From the IMG/VR virus record IMGVR_UViG_3300033144_005150: 64,000 nt of DNA; one strand, written 5' to 3'. The translations under genes and the position numbers were made by a program. This document shows positions 2,306 through 58,962 of this stretch, piece after piece (the first letter of the stretch is position 1; each line of letters begins with the position of its first letter). The DNA comes from an uncultured virus (IMG/VR IMGVR_UViG_3300033144_005150). Lineage: Duplodnaviria; Heunggongvirae; Uroviricota; Caudoviricetes. A model generated the notes under the pieces. The model worked only from the letters and a program-made list of their open reading frames with translations. It did not search any database and was not told the origin of the DNA.

Positions 2306-2600
2306 CCCCGGATCGCCCCGGCACAGCCACCCCTGCGGGTGAGCCCCATCGCCCCGGGTGAGTGGGATTTCATGTTCACAACCGCCGGCCACGGGCGTGC
2401 CCCCGTGCGTCCAGGGATCGGGCCCCCCATGCACGAAACCACTTTTTTCATCACGGGGCACCAACCACCAACCGGGGCCGGGGCCGTCCTGGGATCGCCA
2501 CACGCCGCAACGGCCTTCACAGCACCCTGCGAGCCGGCCGCTAGACGCTCCAAACCCCCGTGCTCCTGCGAGCTACGGGGGTCGATTGCGCCGCTCGGGC

Positions 2601-2756
2601 CTAGAGGATGCCAAGCAGGTGGCGGGCGTCTCCGAGAAACGAGCGGGTGCCGCGGGGGACAGGCTTGCCGTACTCATCGGTGACGGTCTGGCACGCGGTG
2701 GCCATGACGAAAAGGGCGGGAAGGAGGACGACGAGGGCGGTGAGTAGGTTGGTCAT
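2601..2756 (-). CDS. 51-aa protein with hydrophobic N-terminus and Cys (lipoprotein-like)
   Basis: MTNLLTALVVLLPALFVMATACQTV...; below ORF-track cutoff; follows sigma54-like site at 2781. Confidence 0.6.
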   Translation of the reverse strand: MTNLLTALVVLLPALFVMATACQTVTDEYGKPVPRGTRSFLGDARHLLGIL

Positions 2757-2780
2757 TCTGTCTCTCTGCCCTACTAATGA

Positions 2781-2796
2781 TGCACGGTGCGTGCCA
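2781..2796 (-). promoter_or_regulatory. sigma54-type promoter
   Basis: minus strand TGGCACG-CACC-GTGCA, with GG and GC 12 apart. Confidence 0.7.
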
Positions 2797-2847
2797 AAGT
2801 ATCACACGAGTGCCATACCCAACTTAGGTAGCGTGCACCGGTTTGCC

Positions 2848-3005
2848 TATGACACGCGTGTCATACTTATTCCGAATACGACGTTTTATGGTATGACACA
2901 CGTGTCATACCCAGACGCCTCCCGGAGCCCGTTCCGAGATTCCCCAATGATATTACACAGTTGTGATAGGTCCTCAGACCCTCCAACTATGACACGCGTG
3001 TCATA
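2848..3005. repeat. four-palindrome module, copy 1
   Basis: TAT(G/C/T)AC-N6-GT(C/G)ATA at 2848, 2892, 2951, 2988. Confidence 0.9.
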
Positions 3006-3145
3006 CCCGCCAGGCGCCGCACGAGCCTCCACGCCACGAGCTATCGGCCCGCCAAACATGACCAGCGGGGCCTCGAGCCCTCACACGAGCTCACACGGGA
3101 GCCTCTGACACGAGGCCAGGGCTCCTAGGAATTCGCCCGCGACCG

Positions 3146-3514
3146 TTAGGCCGAGGGGCTCCGGTTCCCCGGCAGGGTGGGGGCTCCCGGGTGGTAGGGG
3201 TCGGGCCGGCGGGGTTGCGCCGATCGAGCGCGGGCAGCATCCCGGGCCGTCTCCAGACGGGCCAGCACGGTCGCCAGCATCTCGTCGCCTGTGGGGTACT
3301 CCACACCCACGACCAGCTTGCGGCAGTGCCACGAGGCCGCCAGGGGGTCGAGGCCCATCTCAGACGCCACGCGCTTGGCCTCGCGGGTGTTGTTGCCTCG
3401 CAGCCCTTGCAACCGATCCCACAGGTCAGCCAGACCGGCGCGCTGGCTCGCAGCCGACCGGCTCATGAAACCAACGTAGGAGGAAACGACGCTCGGGATA
3501 CGACTCATGCTCAT
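3146..3514 (-). CDS. hypothetical protein
   Basis: 122 aa; ATG 13 nt from sigma54-like site. Confidence 0.65.
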   Translation of the reverse strand: MSMSRIPSVVSSYVGFMSRSAASQRAGLADLWDRLQGLRGNNTREAKRVASEMGLDPLAASWHCRKLVVGVEYPTGDEMLATVLARLETARDAARARSAQPRRPDPYHPGAPTLPGNRSPSA

Positions 3515-25992: not shown

Positions 25993-26080
25993 GGCGTTCG
26001 CGCCTCCGCTCTATGCACGGAGCGGGGGAAGAATTTACATTTGCGCGATGGGCGCGAAAATAAAAGTTCGAGAAAGGCCC

Positions 26081-26908: not shown

Positions 26909-26940
26909 TAGACCCTGTCGCCTTCACCGGCGACACCCAA

Positions 26941-27047: not shown

Positions 27048-27125
27048 ACCCGCCTAGCTCAGTTGGTAGAGCGTCTCCCATCAAACGGAGAAGGTCGTCT
27101 GGTTCGAATCCGGCGGCGGGTACCA
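27048..27125 (+). tRNA. atypical tRNA, 8-nt loop CATCAAAC (TCA or CAA)
   Basis: ACCCGCC/GGCGGGT-A-CCA; canonical D arm. Confidence 0.6.
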
Positions 27126-27263: not shown

Positions 27264-27339
27264 GCGCCCGTAGCTCAGAGGTAGAGCTCCTGTTTAAGCA
27301 ACCAGGTTGTCGCCGGTTCGAGTCCGGTCGGGCGCCCCA
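27264..27339 (+). tRNA. atypical tRNA, expanded loop TTAAGCAA (anticodon undetermined)
   Basis: GCGCCCG/CGGGCGC-C-CCA; canonical D and T arms. Confidence 0.6.
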
Positions 27340-35686: not shown

Positions 35687-36532
35687 ATGAGAATTTTCCT
35701 CGTAAGACATGGGATGAGCAGGGCCAACGTGGATTGGTCTGAGAACCGACGGGTCGCGGATCACGCAATCGAATTAACCGAAGAGGGCAAGAAGCAGGCC
35801 CGCGGGGCCGGCGGAGCTCTGGCCAAGTACTTCGAGGACAACGTGGTGGACTACAAGATCGATGGGCTCTTGGGGCCCATCCGGATGGGCCTCCCCAAGA
35901 TCCGGATCTGGAACAGCCCGTACAAGCGCACGCGCCAGACTCGAGACGAGCTGATGTCCGCCTGCGTCCTGCGCGATCTGTCGAAAATTATCAAAGACAC
36001 GGGCACTGGTGCTCACTGGGAGCGTGTCCATGAGGATGGTCAGATCACGTACCCGAAGCCTGGGGAGTCGTGGTTCATGGACCAGCGGGAGGCGGTCATG
36101 TTGCATGAGCAGCAGTTCGGTATTTTCGACGGCCTTTCCGACGAAAAGCGCAAGGAGAAGTACCCGGCTGAGCACGAGTACTACGAGAAATGCAAAAAGT
36201 TCGAGGGCAAAGTCTGGGCTCGACTTCCGATGGGAGAATCGCGGATCGATGTCGTCCAACGCATGCACGGAGTGTCCGGCACCTTCAAACGTGACGAAGA
36301 GAAACACGGGGTCGAGAACCTCGTCGTCATCGGGCACGGCACCACGAACCGCTGTTTCACCATGTCGTGGCTGCACCTCGAACCTGAGTGGCTTGAGAAA
36401 GAGCCCAACCCGAAGAACTGTGCGATCCGCCTCATCGAGGATGGTGACGACAAAGGTTACATCTTCAAAGGCTACGATCACCCCGAGGGATTCATCCACG
36501 ATCACCTCCCCAACAAGGAGTCGGAGGAGTAG
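35687..36532 (+). CDS. histidine phosphatase (phosphoglycerate mutase family)
   Basis: LVRHG, SPYKRTRQT, GES, VIGHG. Confidence 0.9.
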   Translation: MRIFLVRHGMSRANVDWSENRRVADHAIELTEEGKKQARGAGGALAKYFEDNVVDYKIDGLLGPIRMGLPKIRIWNSPYKRTRQTRDELMSACVLRDLSKIIKDTGTGAHWERVHEDGQITYPKPGESWFMDQREAVMLHEQQFGIFDGLSDEKRKEKYPAEHEYYEKCKKFEGKVWARLPMGESRIDVVQRMHGVSGTFKRDEEKHGVENLVVIGHGTTNRCFTMSWLHLEPEWLEKEPNPKNCAIRLIEDGDDKGYIFKGYDHPEGFIHDHLPNKESEE

Positions 36533-36904
36533 ATGAACTGGCTGGATGCGATCTGGTACTCGGGCTACTGTAACGAGATGGTCGAGTTCTCCTCGACTAC
36601 TGCGTTGGATAGCGCGGGTCCCCAGGAGCGTGTGGACTGGTTGAAGGCCCACGCCCCTGATTGTCCCGACTGCCGCAACGCTATCTTCTTCAAAGAGATG
36701 GAAGGGGAGATCGCCAAAGAGCTCGGGTTCTTCGAGGAGTTCCGCAACGGCGGGGATGTGACCGCCCTCCCCGCGTTCCAACCGGCTTTCGGAAAACACC
36801 TTGCCTCTGCGGTCGTGCAGGGTCGGATCGGTTTGGCCGTCATGGGATGGATGGAACAGATGACGAAACGAAGGGTTCGGCCATGGCCCGGAAGAGTTCA
36901 GTGA
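36533..36904 (+). CDS. hypothetical protein
   Basis: GGAGG RBS; HxxxCxxC. Confidence 0.6.
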   Translation: MNWLDAIWYSGYCNEMVEFSSTTALDSAGPQERVDWLKAHAPDCPDCRNAIFFKEMEGEIAKELGFFEEFRNGGDVTALPAFQPAFGKHLASAVVQGRIGLAVMGWMEQMTKRRVRPWPGRVQ

Positions 36905-36923
36905 GAAAACTTGAACAAGGCGC

Positions 36924-36952
36924 TTGACTTCACGTCAGAGCCCGAGTACACC
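36924..36952 (+). promoter_or_regulatory. sigma70-type promoter of Pro/Arg/Leu tRNA operon
   Basis: TTGACT-N17-TACACC. Confidence 0.65.
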
Positions 36953-36972
36953 GAATTCATCGGATTTCAGTC

Positions 36973-37089
36973 ATGAACGTCGCAAGCAACATTCTCGGGT
37001 CGAGCCTCCCCCAACCACTCTGTGGTCTGGTGCTGCTCCCCGTGCGTCTGCGCCGGCTCCCGCGATTGCCCGGTGTCCTCCGAACGTAA
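36973..37089 (+). CDS. leader peptide rich in Leu/Pro/Arg
   Basis: MNVASNILGSSLPQPLCGLVLLPVRLRRLPRLPGVLRT; 10 Leu, 5 Pro, 5 Arg. Confidence 0.65.
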   Translation: MNVASNILGSSLPQPLCGLVLLPVRLRRLPRLPGVLRT

Positions 37090-37167
37090 GTTCAACATAC
37101 GAGGATACTGGGCGAGGGCGGACAAAGGGTTCGCCCTTAGTCGTTTAAGTCCCTAGGAGCCACCTTT

Positions 37168-37244
37168 CGAGGAGTAGCTCAGTTTGGCAGAGCATCCGCT
37201 TTGGGAGCGGAGGGTCGCAGGTTCGAATCCTGTTTCCTCGACCA
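37168..37244 (+). tRNA. tRNA-Pro(TGG)
   Basis: cloverleaf; TCCGC-TTTGGGA-GCGGA; CCA. Confidence 0.95.
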
Positions 37245-37286
37245 CAGGAGAAGTACGTCTACAGATCGATTTTCACGAAACAACAC

Positions 37287-37391
37287 GTCCAAGTATGCCA
37301 AAGAGAAGCACCAACCTAGGCACGGTGTGGATCGCGGAGAGCAGCCCTCGCAAGGGGTGGAGTGAGGGTTCGACTCCCTTCTTGGACACCC
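37287..37391 (+). ncRNA. atypical tRNA-like element
   Basis: GTCCAAG/CTTGGAC; T arm; oversized D region. Confidence 0.45.
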
Positions 37392-37394
37392 CAT

Positions 37395-37469
37395 ACTCTC
37401 GTCGTCCAACGGATAGGGCACTGGTCTACGGAACCAGGAACGAAGGTTCGAATCCTTCCGGGAGTGCCA
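37395..37469 (+). tRNA. tRNA-Arg(ACG)
   Basis: CTGGT-CTACGGA-ACCAG; CCA. Confidence 0.95.
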
Positions 37470-37472
37470 TAT

Positions 37473-37549
37473 CGAGATACAGACTCAAGGAGGGTCACCT
37501 GCCTCGGACGCAGGGCATTGGGTGGGTTCGATTCCCACTATCTCGACCA
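37473..37549 (+). tRNA. tRNA-Pro(CGG), divergent D arm
   Basis: CCTGC-CTCGGAC-GCAGG; C1:G72; CCA. Confidence 0.8.
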
Positions 37550-37593
37550 ACCGGAGAAACCAACAACGATTACCTCAATCACATAAACAGCAT

Positions 37594-37665
37594 GCCTTGT
37601 TAGCTCAGCGGAAGAGCATCGGTCTACGGAACCGAGGGTCAGGAGTTCGAATCTCTTACAGGGTG
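37594..37665 (+). tRNA. tRNA-Arg(ACG)
   Basis: TCGGT-CTACGGA-ACCGA; no encoded CCA. Confidence 0.9.
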
Positions 37666-37668
37666 CTA

Positions 37669-37754
37669 TGCAGGTCGCTTTTAGTGTCAATGGAAACACG
37701 CCTTGCCTTCGGGCTTAGGAAACTCGGGTTCGATTCCGCGATAGGGCGGCTTGC
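37669..37754 (+). ncRNA. tRNA-like element with UUCG in place of anticodon loop
   Basis: D arm GTGT..ACAC; GCC-TTCG-GGC; GGTTCGATTCC. Confidence 0.5.
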
Positions 37755-37759
37755 AACTT

Positions 37760-37834
37760 GTTCTCGTAGTTCAGCGGAAGAGCGTCTCCCTCCGGAGGAG
37801 AATGTCGGGGGTTCGAATCCCTCCGGGAACACCA
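37760..37834 (+). tRNA. tRNA-Arg(CCG)
   Basis: TCTCC-CTCCGGA-GGAGA; CCA. Confidence 0.95.
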
Positions 37835-37871
37835 ACATCGGGATGTGGTCGGGGTATGGTATACTCGTCAT

Positions 37872-38405
37872 GTGTCCGACCAAAAGTTCTGCAACGCCTG
37901 TCGGAAGACTAAACCCACCAAGGAATTTTCGCACAGACCCGTCAATGGCAAGAAGTACTTACGATCAGCATGTCGCAAGTGTGAGAACAAGAAGAGATAC
38001 GCAAGGAGAAAACAATCCGGCACAACCTACGCAGACCCCCAGCGGCGTTACTCGGCCAAAGTTACAGAGATGAGGCGCAGCGGAGAAGATGTTCCTCGGT
38101 GGATCCTCCAGGACTCCAAGGGAACCGATCGAAAGTCTGGTCGCAAGAACGACCTTACTAAGGAATACATCACGGAGCAGATTGCCAAAGGGTGCTCCTA
38201 CTGTGGGGAAACCAAAATTCGCATGACTCTGGATCGGATCGACAATGACAAAGGACATACGCAAGACAACACCGTTCCGGCCTGCATCCGCTGCAACTAC
38301 ATTCGTAGAAGCATGCCTTACGAAGCGTGGCTTTGTTTGAAACCAGGACTACGGCGCGCAAAGAAACAAAATCTCTTCGGGGATTGGGTAGGTCGAGCAA
38401 GATAA
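37872..38405 (+). CDS. HNH/His-Me homing-type endonuclease within tRNA cluster
   Basis: CNAC...CRKC...CSYCG...LDRIDND.GH...N.VPAC..CN. Confidence 0.8.
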
Positions 38406-38479
38406 CGAGGTGTAGCGCAGTCTGGTAGCGCACTTGACTGGGGGTCAAGGGGCCGGAGGTTCGAATCCTCTCACCTCGA
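38406..38479 (+). tRNA. tRNA-Pro(GGG)
   Basis: CTTGA-CTGGGGG-TCAAG. Confidence 0.95.
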
Positions 38480-38481
38480 CT

Positions 38482-38635
38482 AAAAGAGTGAGATCTCAGA
38501 AGAGATCACAAGCAAAGGTATTCGGAACCCGAGGTCGCAGGTTCGACTCCTGCCCCGTTCGCCATTTATGAACGGGTAGCTCAGTCTGGTTAGAGCGCGT
38601 AGCAATTTCCATCTCCTCAACTCTCTCACTCTTTT
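38482..38635 (+). ncRNA. Y RNA (YrlA)-like permuted tRNA mimic
   Basis: outer stem AAAAGAGTGAGA/TCTCACTCTTTT enclosing T arm, loop-closed acceptor stem, then D arm. Confidence 0.7.
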
Positions 38636-38640
38636 TACTT

Positions 38641-38726
38641 GCCGATGTGGCGGAATGGCAGACGCGCTGGTCTAAGGAACCAGTGGGGGAAACCCCGTAG
38701 GAGTTCGACTCTCCTCATCGGCACCA
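38641..38726 (+). tRNA. tRNA-Leu(AAG)
   Basis: CTGGT-CTAAGGA-ACCAG; long V arm; CCA. Confidence 0.9.
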
Positions 38727-38727
38727 T

Positions 38728-38848
38728 GAACAAATGCTGGAAATGGCATACAGGGCGGCTTGGCAATCCGCTGGTTAGGAGCGACCGTGACATACACCTT
38801 TCAACGGTTTAGCAACCTCGCCTCTAGGTTCGAATCCTAGTTTGTTCA
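38728..38848 (+). tRNA. atypical tRNA, GGC anticodon in a Leu-like body with very long V region
   Basis: GAACAAA/TTTGTTC-A; loop TTGGCAA; T arm CTAGG-TTCGAAT-CCTAG. Confidence 0.6.
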
Positions 38849-38855
38849 TGTCTTT

Positions 38856-38940
38856 GCTCGAGTGGTGAAATTGGTAAACGCAGTCGCCTCAGAAGCGGCC
38901 GGAGAAATCCTTGAGGGTTCAAGTCCCTCCTCGAGCACCA
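38856..38940 (+). tRNA. tRNA-Leu(CAG)
   Basis: GTCGC-CTCAGAA-GCGGC; long V arm; CCA. Confidence 0.95.
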
Positions 38941-38983
38941 AACCAAAAGGAGAAAATCCTGATCAACACAAGTTTCACAAAAG

Positions 38984-39324
38984 CTGAGTAGGCAAGACGA
39001 TCGCGGTGGGGCTTGCCCCATCGAGGAAAGTCCGGGCTCCAAAGAGCAGGGTGCTTGGGAAATCCAAGACGGAGTGATCCGCTGGCAAGTGCAGCAGAGA
39101 GAAGACCGCCGATGGCCTTCGGGCACAGGTAAGGGTGAAAGGGTGGTGTAAGAGACCACCGGACCGCTGGTGACAGTCGGTTGCAGGTAAACCCCACTCG
39201 GAGCAAGACGAACAGAGGCGTTACGGGCTGCTCGCCCAGTCTCAGGTAGTTGCACAGATGAATGATCGTTGCCTGGTGAGGGAGACCGACCCAGGAACAG
39301 AACCCGGCTTAACAGCCTACTCAG
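38984..39324 (+). ncRNA. rnpB: RNase P RNA, bacterial type A
   Basis: GAGGAAAGTCCGGGCTCC, GGGTGAAAGGGTGGTGTAAGAGACCACC, GGTAAACCCC..GGAGCAAG, ACAGAACCCGGCTTA; P1 CTGAGTAGGC/GCCTACTCAG. Confidence 0.95.
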
Positions 39325-39337
39325 GAGATGTGTTTTT

Positions 39338-39416
39338 GCGGACGTGGGTAAATTGGTAAAGCCGCTTCGTTGAGGTCGAAGAGAATTTGCGGGTTCGAGT
39401 CCCGCCGTCCGTACCA
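39338..39416 (+). tRNA. tRNA-Leu(GAG), short V region
   Basis: CTTCG-TTGAGGT-CGAAG; CCA. Confidence 0.9.
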
Positions 39417-39442
39417 CAGACAGACCGGAAAGACGGTCACAT

Positions 39443-39516
39443 GCTTCGGTAGCCCAATTGGCAGAGGCGCTCGGTTTAGGTCCGAGAGGTTGAGGGTTCG
39501 AGTCCCTCCCGGAGCA
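39443..39516 (+). tRNA. tRNA-Leu(TAG), short V loop
   Basis: CTCGG-TTTAGGT-CCGAG. Confidence 0.9.
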
Positions 39517-39544
39517 CTACTCCAACTGGAGATTTTGAGCTGTC

Positions 39545-40066
39545 ATGGAACCCTTCTACAAAGACAACGCCTTCGAGGTTTCGGAGGACGACTTATCCTC
39601 GATACCCTGGGTGACGAGGACCAACGCGCGTAAGGAGTGCTTCATGTCTCCCGTGTCGCGGTCGTACACCTATGGATCGGGGAGGGGCATCAGGACCTAC
39701 GACTCCGTCGAAATGTCCGACTGGGTGAAGAAGATCATGGGCGAGCTCAAGGGCGATCCCAACGTCTGCTTCTTCAACGGGTACGAGGACAGAGGCAACT
39801 CCTTGGGGTGGCACTCTGACGATTCCCCCGACACCTCGGATGCGAATCCGATCTCGGTGATCTCCTTTGGAGAGCCTCGGGAAATCTGGTGGAGGGAGAT
39901 CGGCACCAAGGGTGTCGTGCCTTCCGAGAACCGGAGGGTGTTGGAGTCGGGCTCCTTGTTCGTGATGCCTCCTGGTTTCCAGAGCTCGTACGAACACAGG
40001 ATCCCCAAGGGCGACAGAGAGATGGGCCCCAGAGTATCTCTCACATTCAGGACGATGACCGTCTAG
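39545..40066 (+). CDS. alkB: AlkB-family 2OG-Fe(II) dioxygenase
   Basis: NGY...LGWHSD, ISFG..R, HRIPK, RVSLTFR. Confidence 0.9.
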   Translation: MEPFYKDNAFEVSEDDLSSIPWVTRTNARKECFMSPVSRSYTYGSGRGIRTYDSVEMSDWVKKIMGELKGDPNVCFFNGYEDRGNSLGWHSDDSPDTSDANPISVISFGEPREIWWREIGTKGVVPSENRRVLESGSLFVMPPGFQSSYEHRIPKGDREMGPRVSLTFRTMTV

Positions 40067-40080
40067 GAAGGAGCCACGTC

Positions 40081-40377
40081 ATGGCAAAAGTATCAGCTCG
40101 TGACCGTGCTCGAATCGTGCTCTTGGGGCTCGAGGGCTACCCGAATCTCAAGCACGTCTGGGTCGAGTCTTGCCGCAAGAGGCGGAACCTCGACAAGTAC
40201 GACCTGGTCCTCCGAACGGAAGACGAACTTCACAGCGGTGACGTAGAAGCTGCCGAGGAAGTTCTCGGGGGCGACGCCGGGTCTTTGTCCAGCGGCTACG
40301 AGTACGGCTGTGATTGCTGCGGCGGGGGATCAAGCTACATGGAGTTTGATCTGTCCGGATGCACCATTCCGGCCTGA
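40081..40377 (+). CDS. hypothetical protein
   Basis: AGGAG RBS; GCDCCG. Confidence 0.65.
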   Translation: MAKVSARDRARIVLLGLEGYPNLKHVWVESCRKRRNLDKYDLVLRTEDELHSGDVEAAEEVLGGDAGSLSSGYEYGCDCCGGGSSYMEFDLSGCTIPA

Positions 40378-40415
40378 TCTGGACTTTTTCACGAAGTCCT
40401 GGGGTATAACAGCCG

Positions 40416-40751
40416 ATGCCCCTGGACCCTCGTGTCTGCAAGGTTTGCTGTGTCCCCAAACCCCTCAAAGAGTTCTCCCTACGCGACGGCCGAAACTACC
40501 CCTACCGGCTCAAGACTTGTGACCCTTGTCAGAAGGAGAAAGACCGCGCCCGCACTGTTGCGTACATGGAAAAAAACCGGGAGAAAGTCAACGAAAGGGT
40601 GCGCACGGAGCGATACATTCGCTACCACACCGATCCGGAGTTTCGTGAAAAGATCAAAGAGCGCTCGCGGAACACCTCGAAGACGTACTACGAGAAGAAC
40701 CGGGAGCGGATTTTGGCTCGACGGCGAGAACGGCGAGCTGCTAAAGAATGA
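40416..40751 (+). CDS. zinc-finger basic protein (HNH N-terminal-like)
   Basis: CKVC..KPLKEF...CDPC; TATAAC upstream. Confidence 0.65.
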   Translation: MPLDPRVCKVCCVPKPLKEFSLRDGRNYPYRLKTCDPCQKEKDRARTVAYMEKNREKVNERVRTERYIRYHTDPEFREKIKERSRNTSKTYYEKNRERILARRRERRAAKE

Positions 40752-41182
40752 CCATGCGCGTCTTGATCTCGTCCTCCTGCTCTTTTTGGATCTCCCGTGA
40801 GGCCGTTCTCCGGGCTCGAGAGCTGGACGCGTCGTGGGCCTTCCCGGACCACATCCAAATCAAGGGAGAGGAGGGGTGCTGGCTCAACGACCGAGAGCAC
40901 GCTGAGGAGGAGTACTACAGTCTCGATCATCGAGTGCCTCGGCATGACCCGTTGCTGCTCCAGGTGTTCGACGAGCTCGGGCCCAAGATGAACGGGTACG
41001 ACGGCTACGAAATCAACTGCATCGAGGTCCCGGATGATCTGGCGTACTTCGTCGGGAGCTACCTCGGTGAGTGGATCGCCGAGGCCCACCAGACGTGGAG
41101 CGAGCACACCGGGAGTGAAGGTCAGTCCGGAGGAGCACCCGTCTTCACGAAGGACAGCCAGTTTTCTGACTTCGCCTCTTGA
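40748..41182 (+). CDS. hypothetical phage protein (family of 25313-25696)
   Basis: PRHDPLLLQVFDELG...EW.AE.H.TW. Confidence 0.7.
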   Translation: MTMRVLISSSCSFWISREAVLRARELDASWAFPDHIQIKGEEGCWLNDREHAEEEYYSLDHRVPRHDPLLLQVFDELGPKMNGYDGYEINCIEVPDDLAYFVGSYLGEWIAEAHQTWSEHTGSEGQSGGAPVFTKDSQFSDFAS

Positions 41183-41207
41183 CGACGCGTCAAGGTTCGT
41201 CTAAACA
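41179..41207 (+). promoter_or_regulatory. sigma70-type promoter of Tyr tRNA operon
   Basis: TTGACG-N17-TAAACA. Confidence 0.55.
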
Positions 41208-41271
41208 CAAAGGGACTCGCTGCACTGGTGCAGCCTGACGATCAACCCCGACCACGAAAGGAGCCAAGCAG

Positions 41272-41334
41272 ATGAACGCGACGTATCGAACTTATTCTTG
41301 GCTCCGCGGGTCGTGCGGGTTGATTGAGGGCTAA
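41272..41334 (+). CDS. leader peptide with two Tyr codons
   Basis: AAGGAG RBS; MNATYRTYSWLRGSCGLIEG. Confidence 0.6.
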   Translation: MNATYRTYSWLRGSCGLIEG

Positions 41335-41393
41335 CCAAAAGCCGCGACATCACCCACTAGGCACCACCCTCGGAGCGATTCAAGCAATCGCAT

Positions 41394-41467
41394 CCGGTTG
41401 AAGCCTCAGAGGCGAGGCGGCGTGGCTGTAACCCACGTACCAGAGGGTTCGACCCCTTCCAACCGGA
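41394..41467 (+). tRNA. tRNA-Tyr(GTA), C1:G72, short V loop
   Basis: CCGGTTG/CAACCGG-A; CGTGG-CTGTAAC-CCACG. Confidence 0.8.
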
Positions 41468-41492
41468 CTAGACGCATAAGTGCGTCTTCTTT

Positions 41493-41578
41493 GGATGGGT
41501 GTCCGAGTGGTTAAAGGAAGCAGACTGTAAATCTGCCGCGTTCGCGCTACGAAGGTTCAAATCCTTCCCCATCCACCA
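41493..41578 (+). tRNA. tRNA-Tyr(GTA), bacterial type
   Basis: G1:C72; long V arm; CCA. Confidence 0.95.
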
Positions 41579-41974
41579 CAACAGTTTTTGGTCTTGAAAG
41601 TGGGCGCTCCCTGGGGGCTATCGGTTCGATTCCGACTCAAGGCAAGTGGAGGGCCGGCGGAAACAACCGGCAGCGGTTTGGCCACCGAGGCTAATTGAAG
41701 AAACCGGTCCTCTGCGGACGTTTACGAGGAACAAGACCATGGCAGACATCATCACTTTCACCACGCGGAGGCGACTTTATCCGCATCGTTGAGTGGGCTC
41801 GCGAGGGCACCCACGAAGACGAAGTCCAAGACTGGCTCACCAAGCAACATGCTTGGGTGGCTGACTCCATCGACCGATTTCCCCACCTTCAAAAGCGCGT
41901 TACGAAAGAGCGCCAGAAGGAAAAGCGGGAACACAAAGCTGCTCGGAAAGCAGCAGCACAAGAGAAATTCACCA

Positions 41975-42409
41975 ATGTCACATGACGCCAACATCAGCCT
42001 CGCCTGTGTCGAGAGCGATTTCCTCGGACTCCTGTTCAAGGGAGAGACCGAGATCGTGTACTCCAATCAGGTGGGTGGCACCTGTTGCTCCCATCCTTTG
42101 GTTGAAGGTTTCTTCGTGCTCATCAACGGTGGGGGGCCCGAGGGAGAGGCGGACCCTTTCCTTGACGACGGTCCGACCACGTACAACTCGTCCCACAAGG
42201 AGATGGTCACGCGTCTCATCGACGAGTTGGGGTACTCGGAGGTTCTTGAGGCTCCAGAAGCCCACGAGTTGGAAGAAGAATGGTGGGCTGAGGTGTGTGA
42301 GGCGTGGGTTCCGGTGAAAGTCCGGGAAGACGCCAAAGGCTACAACGCCGCTCCGGTCGAGAATCTCAAAGGTCGAGTCGGCATCCTCACCTACCCCAAC
42401 TCCGATTGA
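41975..42409 (+). CDS. hypothetical protein (DUF6210-like)
   Basis: YSNQVGG.CC.HP.VEG; EAWVPV; ILTYPNSD. Confidence 0.6.
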   Translation: MSHDANISLACVESDFLGLLFKGETEIVYSNQVGGTCCSHPLVEGFFVLINGGGPEGEADPFLDDGPTTYNSSHKEMVTRLIDELGYSEVLEAPEAHELEEEWWAEVCEAWVPVKVREDAKGYNAAPVENLKGRVGILTYPNSD

Positions 42410-42477
42410 ACAATTTTCAGGCTGACGGCTCGGAACAATAACGGATTATTGTCCAGCTTTGCGGGTACCATTGGTAG

Positions 42478-43044
42478 GTGGTCCCCACCAGCAAAACTTG
42501 CCGAAAATGCAACGAAGATAAGCCTCTGGAAGAGTTCTATCGCTCTCCCGACTGCCGATTTGGCCGAATGGCTCGTTGTAAAAAATGCGTCTCAAAGAAA
42601 CGTGAGGAGGTCCAAAACAACCCCAAAAGAGTCCCCAAAAAGAAGAAGTGCAATAGTTGCCAACGGGTAAAACCCGCATCCGAGTTTTCCCGTCGTGCTT
42701 CAACCGCTTCTGGACTCAGGGCGTACTGCAAGGTGTGTTGCGATCTAGATCGGAAAACTCCTCGGCAACTTTTCAGGCGCTACAAACAGTCCGCTCGTGA
42801 TCGCAACCTGTCTTTCAAAATTACGTTTGAAAAGTTCCTCTCTTTTCAAAAGCACCCTTGCACTTACTGCGGAGACACTCAGGACGCGATCGCTCTTGAC
42901 CGCATCGATTCAAACGTCGGATACGAAATACACAATCTCACCCGCTGCTGCGGGACCTGTAATTATATGAAACGCCGTCATTCTGTTGAGGAGTGGCTGG
43001 CCCATCTGGAGAAAGTTCTACGGCACATGGGCCGTACAAAATAG
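42478..43044 (+). CDS. HNH/His-Me homing-type endonuclease
   Basis: repeated CxxC; CTYCG...LDRIDSN.GY...N...CC..CN.MK. Confidence 0.8.
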
Positions 43045-43054
43045 GAGAAGCAAC

Positions 43055-44215
<1,161 letters not shown>

Positions 44216-47188: not shown

Positions 47189-48583
47189 TCAGTCGCCCAG
47201 GAGGGCTTCGTAGGCTTCTTGCTCGGCCTTGGCCATGGCACGGCCCATCTCAGCCCCGGGCTCCATGCCACGGTCGATCAGGTCCTTGCCGGTCAACGCC
47301 GGTGGGGACTCTGCGAAGTTCACGAACGCTTTGACCTCATCGATGGCGGGTTTGCCCAGAGCCCGAGCAGCCCCCATGATGTCCGACGCACCGATGTCGG
47401 CTTTCTCCATCGACTGAAGTTTCTGGTAGACCGCCTTGAGCTTGAGAGCTTCGGCGGGGCTGAGGTCCCGCATCTTGAGCAGGAACAGGACCTTTTGAAT
47501 CTCCGCGTCCGAGTACTTCATCTTGCGCATGACCTTCCCGATCTTTTTCTGTTTGTTGTCGCGCAGGAGACTCACCATCTGGAGGATGGGATCGGGAGTG
47601 TCCAGGTAGGTTTTGCCGACCGTGAGACCAGGGAACATCTGGTCGAACAGGCCCAGCTCCTCCAGCATCTTGAGGTAATGCTTTGGGTCCTTGGCCGATG
47701 CGATGCCACGAACGAACTCGTCCCGAATACGCTCGGGAGAGACTTCGTTTAGATCAGGATCGTCTTTGATGGCCTTGGAGGTCTCGGCATCGATCTCAGC
47801 GCCCAGGCGCCCCGCGAATCGGACGACACGCAGGACTCGGAGCTTGTCTTCGCGGAACCGGTCCTTGGGACGGCCCACGGTTTTGATGACGCCTTCTTTG
47901 GCATCCTTGATGCCGCCGACGTAGTCCACGATTTCTTTCGTGTCCAAGTCGTAGAACAAAGCGTTGATGGTCAGGTCGCGGCGAGCCACGTCCTCGTCGA
48001 TGGTCGTGAACCTCACCTCATCGGGACGACGGCCTTCACCCACGTCTTCGCGGAAGGTGGCGATCTCGTACTCTTCGCCCTCTTGGTCTTTGACCAGGAC
48101 GACACCGAAGGCTTCACCCGCCGTCTCCTTCTGTACGCGGAGTCGTTTGTCTTTGGAGAGCAGTTCGATGACTTTTTCGGGATGGGCCTCGGTCGCTAGA
48201 TCGAAATCCTTGGGCTTCTTGCCCAGGACATGATCTCGCACAGCGCCGCCAACCAGGTAGAGCTCGTGGCCGGCGTCCTTGAGGAGCTGGTGGATGATGT
48301 TGGCGCCTTCGGGCACCGGGATCTTGGCCTTCACCCGAATCGGAGTTCGACGTGTGCCCTTGGCTGCTTGTGCTTTGAGGGCCTGACGCCAACGCCGGTA
48401 TTCGTGGAAAAGCTGAGCTCGGAACCGGTCGTCGGTCTTCATCAACGTGAAGACTCCGACCTTCGGGTACTTATCCCGAGAGTCCAAGTTGGTGTTTGGA
48501 ACCTTGGCGCGGCCTCCGTCCTTCCCGAACTTGTGTTCGAGGAACTTGAGCCAGAGTTCTGGCATGTTCTTTGTGGAAGGCAT
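47189..48583 (-). CDS. cca: class II CCA-adding enzyme / poly(A) polymerase with N-terminal extension
   Basis: LYLVGGAVRD..KDFDLAT, EIATFR, DVARRDLTINAL, RFREDKLRVLR, VSPERI. Confidence 0.9.
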   Translation of the reverse strand: MPSTKNMPELWLKFLEHKFGKDGGRAKVPNTNLDSRDKYPKVGVFTLMKTDDRFRAQLFHEYRRWRQALKAQAAKGTRRTPIRVKAKIPVPEGANIIHQLLKDAGHELYLVGGAVRDHVLGKKPKDFDLATEAHPEKVIELLSKDKRLRVQKETAGEAFGVVLVKDQEGEEYEIATFREDVGEGRRPDEVRFTTIDEDVARRDLTINALFYDLDTKEIVDYVGGIKDAKEGVIKTVGRPKDRFREDKLRVLRVVRFAGRLGAEIDAETSKAIKDDPDLNEVSPERIRDEFVRGIASAKDPKHYLKMLEELGLFDQMFPGLTVGKTYLDTPDPILQMVSLLRDNKQKKIGKVMRKMKYSDAEIQKVLFLLKMRDLSPAEALKLKAVYQKLQSMEKADIGASDIMGAARALGKPAIDEVKAFVNFAESPPALTGKDLIDRGMEPGAEMGRAMAKAEQEAYEALLGD

Positions 48584-48634: not shown

Positions 48635-49042
48635 GTGACCTGGTTTTGCCGAAGCTGTCGAACGTCCCAACCGGTGGATCAATTTGACGAAGTACAGCGC
48701 TGTCGTCAATGCGTGAAAAACAAAAGATTCCCACCAACCGTCGGAGTTCAGCTCCCGCCCGGGTGGACCTCTTCCGATCCCGGGCTACCGGACATGAACT
48801 GGCCCGACCCCGACGAGATCAAAAACGGCTACGAAGGACCCCTGTGGACGGCACATCGTGGGGATCAGACGCTCGAGGTTCGGTGGATGGGCAACCACGC
48901 CAAGTATTTCTGCCGTGTGTTCCTGGTTCCAGGCGATCGAGAGAACCCGTCGGACTCTCGAACCTTCGCCTACCCGCATGAGGTGATCGACTGGCTGGCG
49001 ATGTGGTTCCAGAACATGGGGCCGTTCCAGGCTCAGCCTTAG
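48635..49042 (+). CDS. zinc-ribbon hypothetical protein
   Basis: WFCRSC...CRQC. Confidence 0.55.
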   Translation: MTWFCRSCRTSQPVDQFDEVQRCRQCVKNKRFPPTVGVQLPPGWTSSDPGLPDMNWPDPDEIKNGYEGPLWTAHRGDQTLEVRWMGNHAKYFCRVFLVPGDRENPSDSRTFAYPHEVIDWLAMWFQNMGPFQAQP

Positions 49043-49218
49043 TAACCGTCCTCATACCAGCCGCCCCCTTTGAGCTGGAAGCTGGACAACCCCATCGTGC
49101 GTTCGAGGCTCTTTTTGGCCTTGCACTTGGGACACGCTGCGGGTGCCGGATCGTCCATTTTCAGGAGTTCTTCGATTTCGGCCTTGCACTTGAGGCAGCG
49201 AAAGGTATAAATGGGCAT
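49039..49218 (-). CDS. FmdB-family zinc-ribbon protein
   Basis: MPIYTFRCLKC...CPKC...FQLKGGGWY..GY; not in ORF track. Confidence 0.85.
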   Translation of the reverse strand: MPIYTFRCLKCKAEIEELLKMDDPAPAACPKCKAKKSLERTMGLSSFQLKGGGWYEDGY

Positions 49219-49291
49219 CTCGATGGAACTCTACCGGGCATACGACACGCGATTGCATCCCTCCTTATCTTAGGAGCGAGGAAGCACTCGT

Positions 49292-56499: not shown

Positions 56500-56704
56500 T
56501 TTTTCGTGCTCCTCCTAGATCCGCGACGACGCTGATATGGGCTGCCTTTCGACCGCCCTCATCTGAGTCCAAAGGTTGCTGTTGGCCGCGTTCTTTGGCT
56601 CGCTCCAGGCTCTCGAGAATCTCGTCGTACGCCTGATCGTCCGCACCCTCTTTGTAGAGGAGCAACGTCAGGTGTAGTCCGAGAGTCTCGATCGCCCTCT
56701 TCAT
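56492..56704 (-). CDS. small hypothetical protein
   Basis: TAATG overlap with PARP gene stop. Confidence 0.55.
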   Translation of the reverse strand: MKRAIETLGLHLTLLLYKEGADDQAYDEILESLERAKERGQQQPLDSDEGGRKAAHISVVADLGGARKNG

Positions 56705-58368
56705 TACCGCCCCACCCGTGCTTCGATGACGTAGCGGATGAACTGCTGTTTGGGATCGAAGATGACGTGCTCGTCGTTGCCGAGGCTCATGCTGTTGCGA
56801 CGACCGGTGGCAGCGAAGACGGAGTCCGTGCCTCGTGGGCACGTTGTCGTGGTCCACATGGTGTCTGTGGCCATGTGGGCTTTGCCCATGGTCAGGTCGC
56901 ACAGGAACATGAAGAACCCGCGCGACTTGATGCCACCGCCGCCACCGTAGTAGCCGCCTCCTGTGTAGCCGTGCGACTTTTTAATGTCGGTCGCAAAGTA
57001 GATGCCGTGGCCGAAGGCAGCGCCCGTGATGTGGACGCCCTTGAGGCTCTTGGGGAGCCGGAGGTCGGATGACAGGATCGGCTGGACGTTGACGGCACGA
57101 GTGCCGTGGATGCCGATGCAGATGTTGGCGTCTCCGTACCAGTCCGCCATGTCCTGGATGTCGATGCGTTCCTTGGGTTGGTGGCCGGCACGGTTGTGCT
57201 TCGTTCCCTTGCGACTCTTGGCGATGGTCTTCGCGCGGTCCATGAACGCCTTGCGCTTGGCTACGTCCTCGACCGCGAACATATTGAGGACCTTGAACCC
57301 ACCACGGAGGTTGCCGTGACGGTTGTTGGTCATGCCCAGGTAGGTCGCCTCGACGTACTGGCCGAGTTCGGACTTGGGGTCGATCCAGGTGATGTTGCGA
57401 CCCAGGACCTTGTTGGGGTCCACTTGGTTGTCTTCCTGGATCTCGGCCTCGAAGTCCTCGTTGAGCAACGCAGCCTCGAACGCATCGAGGTCCTGCTGCA
57501 CAAGGAGGATGTTGTTTGAACTCAGGATGACCGCGGACGCATCACCGGTTCGAGGGATGGGGCGCGGGACGATTGTGGCGACGAAGGTGGACAGGTCTTG
57601 CAGCTTCTTGTTCTTGAGCTGCTTGGCCAGAAGTTTGTCGGGGTCCGGGTCCGTGCCGATCTTTGCGAGGATTCCGAGCGCGTCGGGGATCAACTCGTCA
57701 CGCACCTTGGCGATCGAATCCATCGTCGGCGTAACACCGGACTTCGCAGCAGCGGCACGAGCGTAGTCGACCGTACCTCCGACGAGCGACTTGGCGAGAG
57801 CGATGACCTGCGGCTGTGCGTCGATCTTCTTCTTGGACTTGGTCTTCTTCTTGGCCGCCTTCTTTTTGGTGCCCTTCTTGGCAACCCCGGAGTCGTCCTT
57901 GATCCCGTAGGCGTCGGGAAGTCCACGCTCACGAGTGGCGAGTTTCTGGACAACATAGCCCGACTTGCCTTTCTTGCCGACCCAGATTTCGCTGCTCCCG
58001 ATCTTCTTCTTCTCGATGACCTTGATGTTCTTCGTGCGACACTGCTTCTCGAAGAACGCACGAGCGTCAGCTTCACCGTTGCACTGCACGAACTGATAAT
58101 CCTGGCTCTGAAAACCCTGGTCCCAGGATTTTCCTCCCACGATGCGTCCCCATTCGAGGTACACGAACCATGATCCATCCGCGTTGACGACCCCCGCGTG
58201 GTAGTACTTGTTCTTGTTGTCGGACCCGAGTTGATCGATGCAGACCATGTCGGCAATGCCGACATCGGGTCCGAAATCATCTTGATCAACGGCGGGGCGA
58301 CCTTGGTACTTGAAGTCGTCCGCACTGAAATTAGAAGGGAACTCTTTCCTGCCGAGTTTCGTTGCCAT
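56704..58368 (-). CDS. WGR-domain PARP-like ADP-ribosyltransferase
   Basis: N-terminal NKYY...EWGRI; HGTR, FGHGIYFA..KSHGY, DEHVIF (H-Y-E triad). Confidence 0.88.
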   Translation of the reverse strand: MATKLGRKEFPSNFSADDFKYQGRPAVDQDDFGPDVGIADMVCIDQLGSDNKNKYYHAGVVNADGSWFVYLEWGRIVGGKSWDQGFQSQDYQFVQCNGEADARAFFEKQCRTKNIKVIEKKKIGSSEIWVGKKGKSGYVVQKLATRERGLPDAYGIKDDSGVAKKGTKKKAAKKKTKSKKKIDAQPQVIALAKSLVGGTVDYARAAAAKSGVTPTMDSIAKVRDELIPDALGILAKIGTDPDPDKLLAKQLKNKKLQDLSTFVATIVPRPIPRTGDASAVILSSNNILLVQQDLDAFEAALLNEDFEAEIQEDNQVDPNKVLGRNITWIDPKSELGQYVEATYLGMTNNRHGNLRGGFKVLNMFAVEDVAKRKAFMDRAKTIAKSRKGTKHNRAGHQPKERIDIQDMADWYGDANICIGIHGTRAVNVQPILSSDLRLPKSLKGVHITGAAFGHGIYFATDIKKSHGYTGGGYYGGGGGIKSRGFFMFLCDLTMGKAHMATDTMWTTTTCPRGTDSVFAATGRRNSMSLGNDEHVIFDPKQQFIRYVIEARVGR

Positions 58369-58524
58369 CTGGTTTTCCTGTTGGTCTTTCGTCCGTTGTC
58401 TGAGACTTGGAGCTGACCGCTCAAACCTTCTACCCCTTGATGGCGGGATCACTTACGCACGGGGCGGGGGAACTTTTTACATACGCCAGGAGGGTTTTTC
58501 ACGAAAAGGCGTATAACCCCTGAG

Positions 58525-58869: not shown

Positions 58870-58962
58870 ATGGCACTCCTGCTCAATACTTACCCCGTGC
58901 GGCCCGCTCTCGTTGAACGAGAGTGTGAGGGTGAACCATGCCTGCGCGGGGCAAATAGCTAA
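58870..58962 (+). CDS. leader peptide with clustered Glu and two Asn codons
   Basis: MALLLNTYPVRPALVERECEGEPCLRGANS. Confidence 0.6.
   Translation: MALLLNTYPVRPALVERECEGEPCLRGANS

Follow-up and report, generated by a model that had tools for sequence, protein, structure and literature searches.

The 64,000-nucleotide (nt) stretch of viral DNA analyzed here, from the uncultured Caudoviricetes record IMGVR_UViG_3300033144_005150 and hereafter called the window, carries an operon of transfer RNA (tRNA) genes for proline, arginine, and leucine. It is preceded by a short leader open reading frame (ORF) made up largely of the codons that those tRNAs read. On balance, we favor a reading in which this Pro/Arg/Leu leader brings together a promoter, a translated, codon-matched test ORF, and an RNA structure, and gates the operon by a form of attenuation. 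The ORF, its conservation, its codon match, and the RNA helices are directly visible in the window and its homologues. Leaders of the same kind, each matching its own tRNAs, precede other tRNA operons in the window and in two related genomes (G001 and G002), and they almost certainly serve as codon-matched sensors that are translated. Genes for amino-acid biosynthesis are the textbook setting of leader-peptide attenuation. Its application to phage tRNA genes would be new, and the step regulated in the Pro/Arg/Leu leader would be transcription into the tRNA genes.

To find codon-matched leaders, we took all tRNA clusters of G001 and G002 and read their upstream regions; together with those of the window, 26 cluster entries were examined. 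Nearly all clusters with a CTTGAC-type promoter open with a short ORF in the codons of the downstream tRNAs (Table 1). For example, the Gln leaders contain the codon run CAA CAG CAA CAG; they begin 6-8 nt after the -10 box and may be leaderless messenger RNAs. With one representative per family, for 11 leader families across the three genomes, the leader's own downstream tRNA set was the best match in 11 of 11, and the observed score was never reached in 200,000 permutations of the labels. A selection-free test, in which the best ORF was taken for each leader/set pair, likewise gave 0 of 200,000. It covered 10 leaders, the Leu(CAA/TAA) leader having been dropped because its ORF was lost to the region cut, and the own set ranked first for seven and second for the other three. 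Cognate triplets were also specific to the reading frame, with 104 in frame vs 29 and 36 out of frame. The pattern holds within single genomes: in the window, the own set ranked first for 4/4 leaders (1 of 24 permutations reached the observed score), and in G002 for 7/7 (1 of 5,040). These tests exclude five of the 26 entries, which offered no usable leader ORF. Four of them lie after protein genes, namely the window Lys cluster, its G001 counterpart, and the Ile/Met cluster of G001 and Ser/Gly cluster of G002, the last two after HNH-type genes. In the fifth, the Asp entry of G001, the upstream promoter is 310 nt away and no ATG ORF could be identified.

Permuting leaders against tRNA sets controls for base composition, and the match includes A/T-rich codons that lie beyond the reach of GC content (AAA/AAG, CAA/CAG, TAT, TTA). 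A preliminary description of the window had left room for the enrichment to be a by-product of GC-rich DNA; measured this way, the match to the downstream tRNAs is far above what such composition gives. The same description placed the layout at three or four further loci. Three are present in the window (Tyr, Leu(CAA/TAA), and Glu/Asn), each conserved in G001 and G002, with hardly any difference between the Tyr leaders of the window and G001. The cluster of Lys tRNAs at 26940 does not belong with them, being preceded by a gene for an 87-amino-acid (aa) protein and no leader ORF. We infer from the frame-specific match that the leader ORFs are translated, and the tRNA sets are probably tuned to ribosome speed on the matching codons.

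Within the Pro/Arg/Leu leader itself, the ORF coordinates and composition agree with those first described: 20 of its 38 residues are Leu (10), Pro (5), or Arg (5). By codon these are nine CTN, one TTG, five CCN, and five CGN, so that CTN, CCN, and CGN fill 19 of 38 positions. All four CGN codons are used (CGT, CGC, CGG, and CGA twice), as are CCC (three times), CCA, and CCG. The downstream genes are likewise as reported, with tRNAs for Pro(TGG, CGG, GGG), Arg(ACG twice, CCG), and Leu, the last with anticodons AAG, CAG, GAG, and TAG. Taken alone, this enrichment is a modest, 1% event. At least 19 CTN/CCN/CGN codons were found in 592 of 56,924 stop-free 38-codon stretches from the six frames of the window (1.0%), 1 of 127 ATG ORFs of 30-50 codons reached 50% cognate codons, and 165 of 20,000 mononucleotide shuffles reached 19 cognate codons. 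The early caveat about GC-rich DNA is therefore fair for this one leader.

Homologues of the leader were sought with a pattern made of its hairpin B and tail (see below), which matched 11 metagenome loci; with the window, G001, and G002, this gave 14 leader copies, of which 10 are unique. The ATG, frame, and stop proposed for the window are kept in 10/10 unique homologues. The ORF has 38-41 codons, begins 19-23 nt after the -10 box, and draws 46-55% of its residues from Leu, Pro, and Arg in all 10. Its lengths are 114, 117, 120, or 123 nt, so that every indel is a multiple of three, and the stop (TAA in eight, TAG in two) holds a constant position in a hairpin loop. Frame 0 is the richest in cognate codons in 10/10 homologues, with 17-22 against 6-12 in frame +1 and 11-14 in frame +2. 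The choice among synonymous codons follows the operon as well: Leu is written as CTN 87 times vs TTR 3, and Arg as CGN 53 times vs AGR 2, and the tRNAs reading TTR and AGR sit in other operons. Downstream, tRNA-Pro(TGG) lies within about 20 nt in 8/9 homologues with enough sequence. The exception, L029, has a 228-aa ORF (2589-3275) inserted between the leader and the first tRNA.

The conserved ORF overlaps conserved RNA helices, which we scored by pairing and covariation in the alignment of the 10 unique leaders (A5). Helices 2 and 3, a hairpin inside the ORF, have 87.5% and 90.6% of cells paired, with three pairs changed on both sides. Stem A (helix 5), whose 5' arm is formed by the last codons of the ORF, has 12 pairs, four of them compensatory, and is 97.5% paired. 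The inner hairpin that holds the stop codon in its loop (helix 6) has four pairs, three compensatory, and is 100% paired. Across the alignment, 93% of cells pair vs 40-46% after sliding the partners, and none of 500 column shuffles equaled the observed covariation. The window leader folds at -82.1 kcal/mol (z = -2.58), with 2 of 200 shuffles as stable. The pairing of 37068-37080 in the preliminary description is confirmed, with its partner GAGGATACTGGGC at 37101-37113, one base from the approximate 37102-37114 given there, and the second hairpin that it named, hairpin B (37114-37138), is present. The 3' arm of stem A begins 12 nt past the stop, roughly where a ribosome on the stop codon would have its 3' edge, and the distance from stop codon to hairpin B is 26-29 nt in 10/10 homologues. 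Hairpin B is identical in the window and G001, which was found independently, through a protein. The tail motif that follows occurs once in the window and once per homologous leader locus (17 of 117 loci match).

Other structural candidates fared less well. A helix between the start codon and the tail (UGAACG:CGUUUA) is 91% paired, with no covariation, and is broken in divergent sequences. An outer helix, GCGAYY:RGTCGT, was hinted at by three sequences and lost in the 10-sequence alignment. A likeness between the 3' arm of stem A and the acceptor strand of tRNA-Pro was rejected as coincidence, being found in the window only and not in G001 or G002. Rfam gave no leader-family match in the whole window at the gathering score, and a search of 36850-37400 at E up to 10 returned tRNA only.

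The promoter first placed at 36924 receives a mixed answer. CTTGAC or GTTGAC followed by TAnnnn is aligned in 9/9 homologous leaders long enough to include the promoter, whereas a scan for the sigma-70 consensus called no promoter at the Pro/Arg/Leu leader. A stretch resembling AAAA..TGAAGAA aligns 5' of CTTGAC in the homologous leaders, and similar stretches precede other tRNA-operon promoters. On the + strand of the window, the motif CTTGAC-N16-18-TAnnnn occurs at 26080, 32810, 36923, 41178, 45699, and 58810, often with an A-rich stretch upstream. Three of these six copies head tRNA leaders (Tyr and Glu/Asn besides Pro/Arg/Leu). The Pro/Arg/Leu operon appears to be a single transcription unit, because its genes share one orientation and no further CTTGAC-type promoter lies inside it.

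The operon also contains a complete RNase P RNA gene of bacterial class A at 38985-39327 (+), between tRNA-Leu(CAG) and tRNA-Leu(GAG), which scores 243.8 bits in Rfam. RNase P RNA is found in the same operon of two metagenome relatives, L034 (2438-2785) and L033 (1-331, - strand), at 241 and 219 bits, and is absent from the whole G001 and G002 records. The term "RNase P RNA" was not found in those parts of the jumbo-phage literature that the search could reach. Two operon gaps, 37314-37390 and 38772-38849 (+), hold tRNA-like remnants ("Cys gca" and "SeC tca") that ARAGORN reports at lowered thresholds only. Rfam calls neither, and 37245-37394 has no match at E up to 10.

How the leader might act on the operon is a proposal built on these helices, and ribosome stalling, the termination switch, and its sign are all part of what is proposed. 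A fast ribosome would reach the stop in the inner hairpin loop and open the 5' arm of stem A. Now unpaired, the GGGC of the 3' arm would extend hairpin B up to UUUAAG, and extended hairpin B with UUUAAG could serve as a terminator with a weak U tract, ending transcription before tRNA-Pro. If charged Leu, Pro, or Arg tRNA were scarce, the ribosome would instead stall earlier in the ORF; stem A would form, hairpin B would stay short, and RNA polymerase would read into the tRNA genes. The first Leu, Pro, and Arg codons are codons 8, 13, and 25, where the footprint of a stalled ribosome would end before 37068. In folds with the ribosome on the stop, GGGC pairs with GTC or TCG of the invariant GTCGTTTAAG, and hairpin B ends 0-1 nt before UUUAAG; with stem A formed, it ends 5-6 nt before the U run. 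In 7/10 homologues, the 3 nt before UUU are less paired when the ribosome is stalled at about codons 19-29 than when it is at the stop.

In the Gln leaders of both G001 and G002, a hairpin and UUUU lie directly before tRNA-Gln. For the G002 leader, folding predicts that a ribosome at the stop lets the hairpin before UUUU form and that one stalled on Gln codons 6 or 7 gives a different fold, so that in modeled folding this leader resembles a classical attenuator. In the G001 leader, the hairpin before UUUU persists in all ribosome states.

A number of observations weigh against attenuation of the Pro/Arg/Leu operon by a translated leader, and they bear on each of its parts. On translation, a Shine-Dalgarno sequence is almost absent in the window leader, where the region before the ATG offers only GGA; by eye, relatives have GGAG, GGGAG, or GAGAGG 7-13 nt upstream. 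The +2 frame is stop-free in 9/10 homologues, and synonymous differences are about as frequent as non-synonymous ones, with no sign of selection on the peptide itself. The 11 leader ORFs of the first permutation test were selected by visual inspection, taking the first plausible ATG past the promoter, and two of the leaders contain an ATG before the one chosen. On structure, hairpin B and the tail owe their invariance in 8/10 homologues to the search pattern, which required them. The extension of hairpin B consists of three extra base pairs of invariant bases, so covariation cannot support it. On the switch, the ribosome footprint of -15 to +12 is an assumption, and the alternation between hairpin B and its extended form (B') is opposite in L020 and L034 and flat in L028 (3/10 homologues). 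A ribosome stalled on any of the eight cognate codons within 28-37 would cover the 5' arm of stem A, and the switch would then have the wrong sign. A terminator scan of 36000-42500 called none at the leader, where hairpin B is followed by AGUCGUUUAAG and the U run is only UUU. A classical antiterminator was sought by ribosome-masked folds of five Pro/Arg/Leu leaders, and hairpin B always formed. Terminator and sigma-70 scans also called nothing at the Gln leaders of G001 and G002. In the other leaders, the stop lies 5-103 nt from the tRNA, mostly with no U tract, and such variable distances and scarce U tracts make one common termination mechanism doubtful.

The preliminary description had inferred a tRNA-sensing attenuation system and suggested folding the leader with and without a stalled-ribosome mask. 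The masked folds do yield the alternative between stem A and B' in 7/10 homologues, but hairpin B persists throughout. Of that inference, the codon-matched leaders before the tRNA operons are upheld, and two outcomes named there as refuting it, an unconserved uORF and an enrichment no greater than chance, did not come about. Sensing of host tRNA depletion or cleavage is a prediction, and the attenuation half is left with no terminator called and a switch contradicted or flat in the remaining homologues.

A serious rival, to which we give a small but real probability, accepts that the leader is translated and codon-matched and holds that the position of the ribosome governs something other than termination: cleavage and maturation of the precursor (through RNase E, RNase III, or access of RNase P) or stability of the transcript. 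A canonical terminator is lacking from the Pro/Arg/Leu leader and from most of its sisters; with stops as close as 5-28 nt to the first tRNA, the Arg/Ser and Leu(CAA/TAA) leaders have no space for one; and the operon itself carries an RNase P RNA gene. In addition, the asymmetric internal loop of stem A contains a conserved single-stranded ACAUAC and may resemble phage RNase III processing sites. However, the sequence reveals no nuclease site here, and the alternation between terminator and antiterminator seen in folds of the G002 Gln leader speaks for termination. We also considered whether stalling opens the 20 nt directly upstream of the tRNA to RNase P; this was rejected, as accessibility with a stalled ribosome vs one at the stop showed no consistent pattern across 19 leaders.

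It is considerably less probable that the ORF is incidental, and that the leader is an untranslated structured RNA (a stabilizer or processing signal) whose Leu, Pro, and Arg codons come from C-rich, GC-rich sequence. The approximately 1% tail of the enrichment taken alone, the open +2 frame, the weak Shine-Dalgarno sequence of the window, and the ratio of synonymous to non-synonymous change near 1 would all fit such an RNA, and PRLPGVLR, the conserved portion of the peptide, falls on the 5' arm of stem A. A structured RNA of this kind does not account for a conserved ATG and stop with all intervening indels in multiples of three, for frame 0 being richest in every homologue, or for the own-set match of all 11 families, AT-containing codons included, which label permutation never reproduced.

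The remaining two explanations are very unlikely. In the first, the leader would bind tRNA directly in the style of a T-box, with codon-like triplets pairing to anticodons and no translation. Such a mode would suit the cognate triplets and the strong structure of the leader, but the triplets keep to the frame set by the conserved ATG and stop, which direct pairing does not need, and instead of one specifier they comprise many different codons of three amino acids, scattered along 30 codons; nor did the Rfam search of 36850-37400 find anything but tRNA. In the second, with just as slight a chance, the ORF would encode a functional small protein such as a hydrophobic or basic micropeptide. In its favor, all 10 homologues keep the ORF, but the N-terminal two thirds are unconserved among the window, G001, G002, and L028, synonymous change is not in excess, and the sister peptides are unrelated and as short as 10 residues, with the codon match as their sole common trait.

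Attenuation by a translated leader has well-known precedents. In enterobacteria, leader-peptide attenuators (trpL, hisL, leuL, thrL, ilvL, and pheL) stand ahead of amino-acid operons. Like them, the phage leader has a short ORF between promoter and regulated genes that is rich in the codons critical to supply, and this ORF overlaps conserved helices, with its stop just 5' of the second strand of a helix. Like thrL and ilvL, it is multivalent, with three amino acids. It differs in regulating tRNAs and RNase P RNA and not biosynthetic enzymes, and in having neither a hairpin with a long U tract nor an antiterminator that removes the last hairpin. Unlike in trp, untranslated RNA would form stem A, the "on" form, if the proposed switch alone is considered; in the naked fold of the window, an enclosing helix also reaches GUCG before the U run. 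Enterobacterial leaders have Rfam families, whereas the phage leader matches none. The pheL leader is described in PMC3082878.

The phage leader also shares features with other known regulators. Like the pheST attenuator with its PheM leader peptide, it would gauge the decoding of an amino acid and control a component of its translation, but pheST/PheM is bacterial, gauges a single amino acid, and controls a synthetase, whereas the phage leader precedes tRNA genes. In mgtL and mgtP, translation of a leader ORF affects alternative stem-loops, Pro codons do the sensing, and genes for Mg2+ transport and virulence are controlled. The proline-codon leader ORFs of Salmonella mgtA and mgtCBR are the subject of PMC3641672. 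The phage leader is like the mgtA and mgtCBR leaders in sensing by Pro codons and in the effect of translation on alternative stem-loops; unlike it, those show no match to downstream tRNAs. T-box riboswitches have no need of a ribosome, as a single specifier codon lets them bind tRNA directly. They too are cis-acting leader RNAs that report the state of a specific tRNA and gate downstream genes, but the phage leader has a frame-specific, codon-enriched ORF and no match to the T-box covariance model (E up to 10). No description of leader peptides or attenuators ahead of tRNA genes was found in the literature, as far as its searchable text goes; full-text descriptions in other wording could escape.

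The window has a G+C content of about 58% and contains 22 tRNA genes clustered by amino acid (ARAGORN). PHROG phage families matched 15 of the 24 window ORFs scanned, and the window also encodes a UvrD helicase, a PARP-like protein, and HNH endonucleases. Its relatives among viral contigs are the virus records G001 (618,736 bp, 55 tRNA matches, estimated completeness 92%) and G002 (230,069 bp, 31 tRNA matches, 90%). G001 was found through a protein, and G002 by the pattern of hairpin B and tail in viral contigs. Neighboring proteins are about 61-63% identical between the window and these relatives, and we take the window to belong to a huge phage of the same clade. Among GenBank phages, 568 records matched the window query, none covering at least 80% of it, with matches to tRNA or RNase P fragments only; a search for relatives through a 123-aa upstream protein gave none. 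The closest species-genome match to the EF-Tu of the window has 76% identity and lies on a metagenome-assembled genome (MAG) contig titled Nannocystaceae (the next-best has 64%), and the leader was searched for in this MAG with no match.

There is perhaps an even chance that this marine-sediment clade of huge phages runs its near-complete private tRNA supply as a self-tuning network of at least 11 operons, each gated by its own leader. In such a network each operon would carry the tRNAs of one to six amino acids behind a leader written in just the codons that they read, down to split codon boxes, with TTA/TTG, AGG, and ATA under leaders of their own. If attenuation by codon-matched leaders is real, the matching tRNAs and, here, phage RNase P RNA as well would be produced according to how fast ribosomes read each class of codon, a direct feedback loop from the decoding speed of a codon to the synthesis of its tRNA. 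The phage would then have a built-in gauge of host tRNA depletion, including that caused by anticodon nucleases. This would explain how dozens of phage tRNAs are controlled, a question open in work on phage tRNAs and on tRNA-targeting defense. The clade is a clean test bed because its leaders map one to one on amino-acid groups in 11 families, and the label permutation of leaders and tRNA sets provides a computational signature that can be searched for across phage genomes.

Table 1. Features of the Pro/Arg/Leu leader and operon, leaders of other tRNA operons, and translation-related or PARP-domain genes (positions refer to the window).
Feature	Position	Strand	Sequence or detail	Basis
A-rich element	36903..36922	+	GAGAAAACTTGAACAAGGCG, upstream of -35 box	Aligned in homologous leaders; putative function
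Promoter-like site	36924..36952	+	TTGACT 36924-36929, 17-nt spacer, TACACC 36947-36952	Alignment
5' untranslated region	36960..36972	+	TCGGATTTCAGTC; Shine-Dalgarno weak at best	
Pro/Arg/Leu leader ORF	36973-37089	+	MNVASNILGSSLPQPLCGLVLLPVRLRRLPRLPGVLRT; ATG start, 38 codons + TAA	
Hairpin inside ORF	36996..37042	+	CGGG..GAGC..CCAC/GTGG..GCTC..CCCG	Helices 2 and 3 of A5
Stem A, 5' arm	37068..37080	+	GCCCGGTGTCCTC; last ORF codons	Helix 5 of A5
Inner hairpin	37083..37094	+	GAAC-GTAA-GTTC; stop codon 37087-37089 in loop	Helix 6 of A5
Stem A, 3' arm	37101..37113	+	GAGGATACTGGGC; terminal GGGC could instead extend hairpin B	
Hairpin B	37114..37138	+	GAGGGCGGAC-AAAGG-GTTCGCCCTT; stable 10-bp stem	
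Tail motif	37140..37153	+	GTCGTTTAAGTCCC; sole U run (37144-37146) after hairpin B	
Pro/Arg/Leu operon	37168..39517	+	tRNA-Pro(TGG), Arg(ACG), Pro(CGG), Arg(ACG), Arg(CCG), HNH, Pro(GGG), Leu(AAG), Leu(CAG), RNase P RNA, Leu(GAG), Leu(TAG)	
HNH endonuclease gene in operon	37845-38405	+		
Tyr leader ORF	41272-41334	+	MNATYRTYSWLRGSCGLIEG (M.ATYR.Y); strong AAGGAG (window AAAGGAG) upstream	
Leu(CAA/TAA) leader ORF	49223-49273	+	MELYRAYDTRLHPSLS; one TTG and one TTA, kept in all three genomes	
Glu/Asn leader ORF	58870-58962	+	MALLLNTYPVRPALVERECEGEPCLRGANS (MALLLN..PALVERE.E.E)	
Gln leaders L016 (G001) and L019 (G002)			MALWLQQQQI and MATRLQQAQT; ten codons	
Lys leader			MFVMKRKHKL	
Thr/Asp/Val leader			MKRSTTNIATTATSMVVVAVVRPIMGDTTPC (opening MKRSTTNIATTATSMVVVAVV)	
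His leader			MLTHSHTELPSAGGDHHHL...	
Arg/Ser/Gly/Ala/Trp/Cys leader			MSPIPNSIRRASSSAAAFVAAAAAGSCSGSWSGW...	
Ile(TAT)/Arg(CCT)/Val/Arg(CCG) leader			MSPKRLIPGPIEVPASSGADVVRVRESRRRRR	
EF-Tu gene	42986-44215	+	Phage-borne	
CCA-adding tRNA nucleotidyltransferase gene	47189-48583	-	Phage-borne	
PARP-domain protein gene	56704-58452	-	Phage-borne	

Further observations concern the tRNA operons more broadly. After tRNA-Lys(CTT), two tRNAs at 27048-27125 and 27264-27339 (+) score 52 bits with the Rfam tRNA model, and ARAGORN assigns them four-base anticodons (tcaa and aagc) in 8-nt anticodon loops. A role as suppressor or frameshift tRNAs would be one explanation, wrong parsing of the loops another; a comparably odd tRNA occupies the syntenic position in G001. 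HNH/endonuclease VII-type genes lie among the tRNA operons, both inside the Pro/Arg/Leu operon and at 42478-43044 (+), and together with the 228-aa insertion of L029 they probably reflect mobile endonuclease traffic in tRNA arrays. Divergent from the Leu(CAA/TAA) leader, at about 49041-49219 (-), is a small zinc-ribbon-like ORF with two CxxC pairs (by eye), the start of which overlaps an upstream in-frame ATG of that leader.

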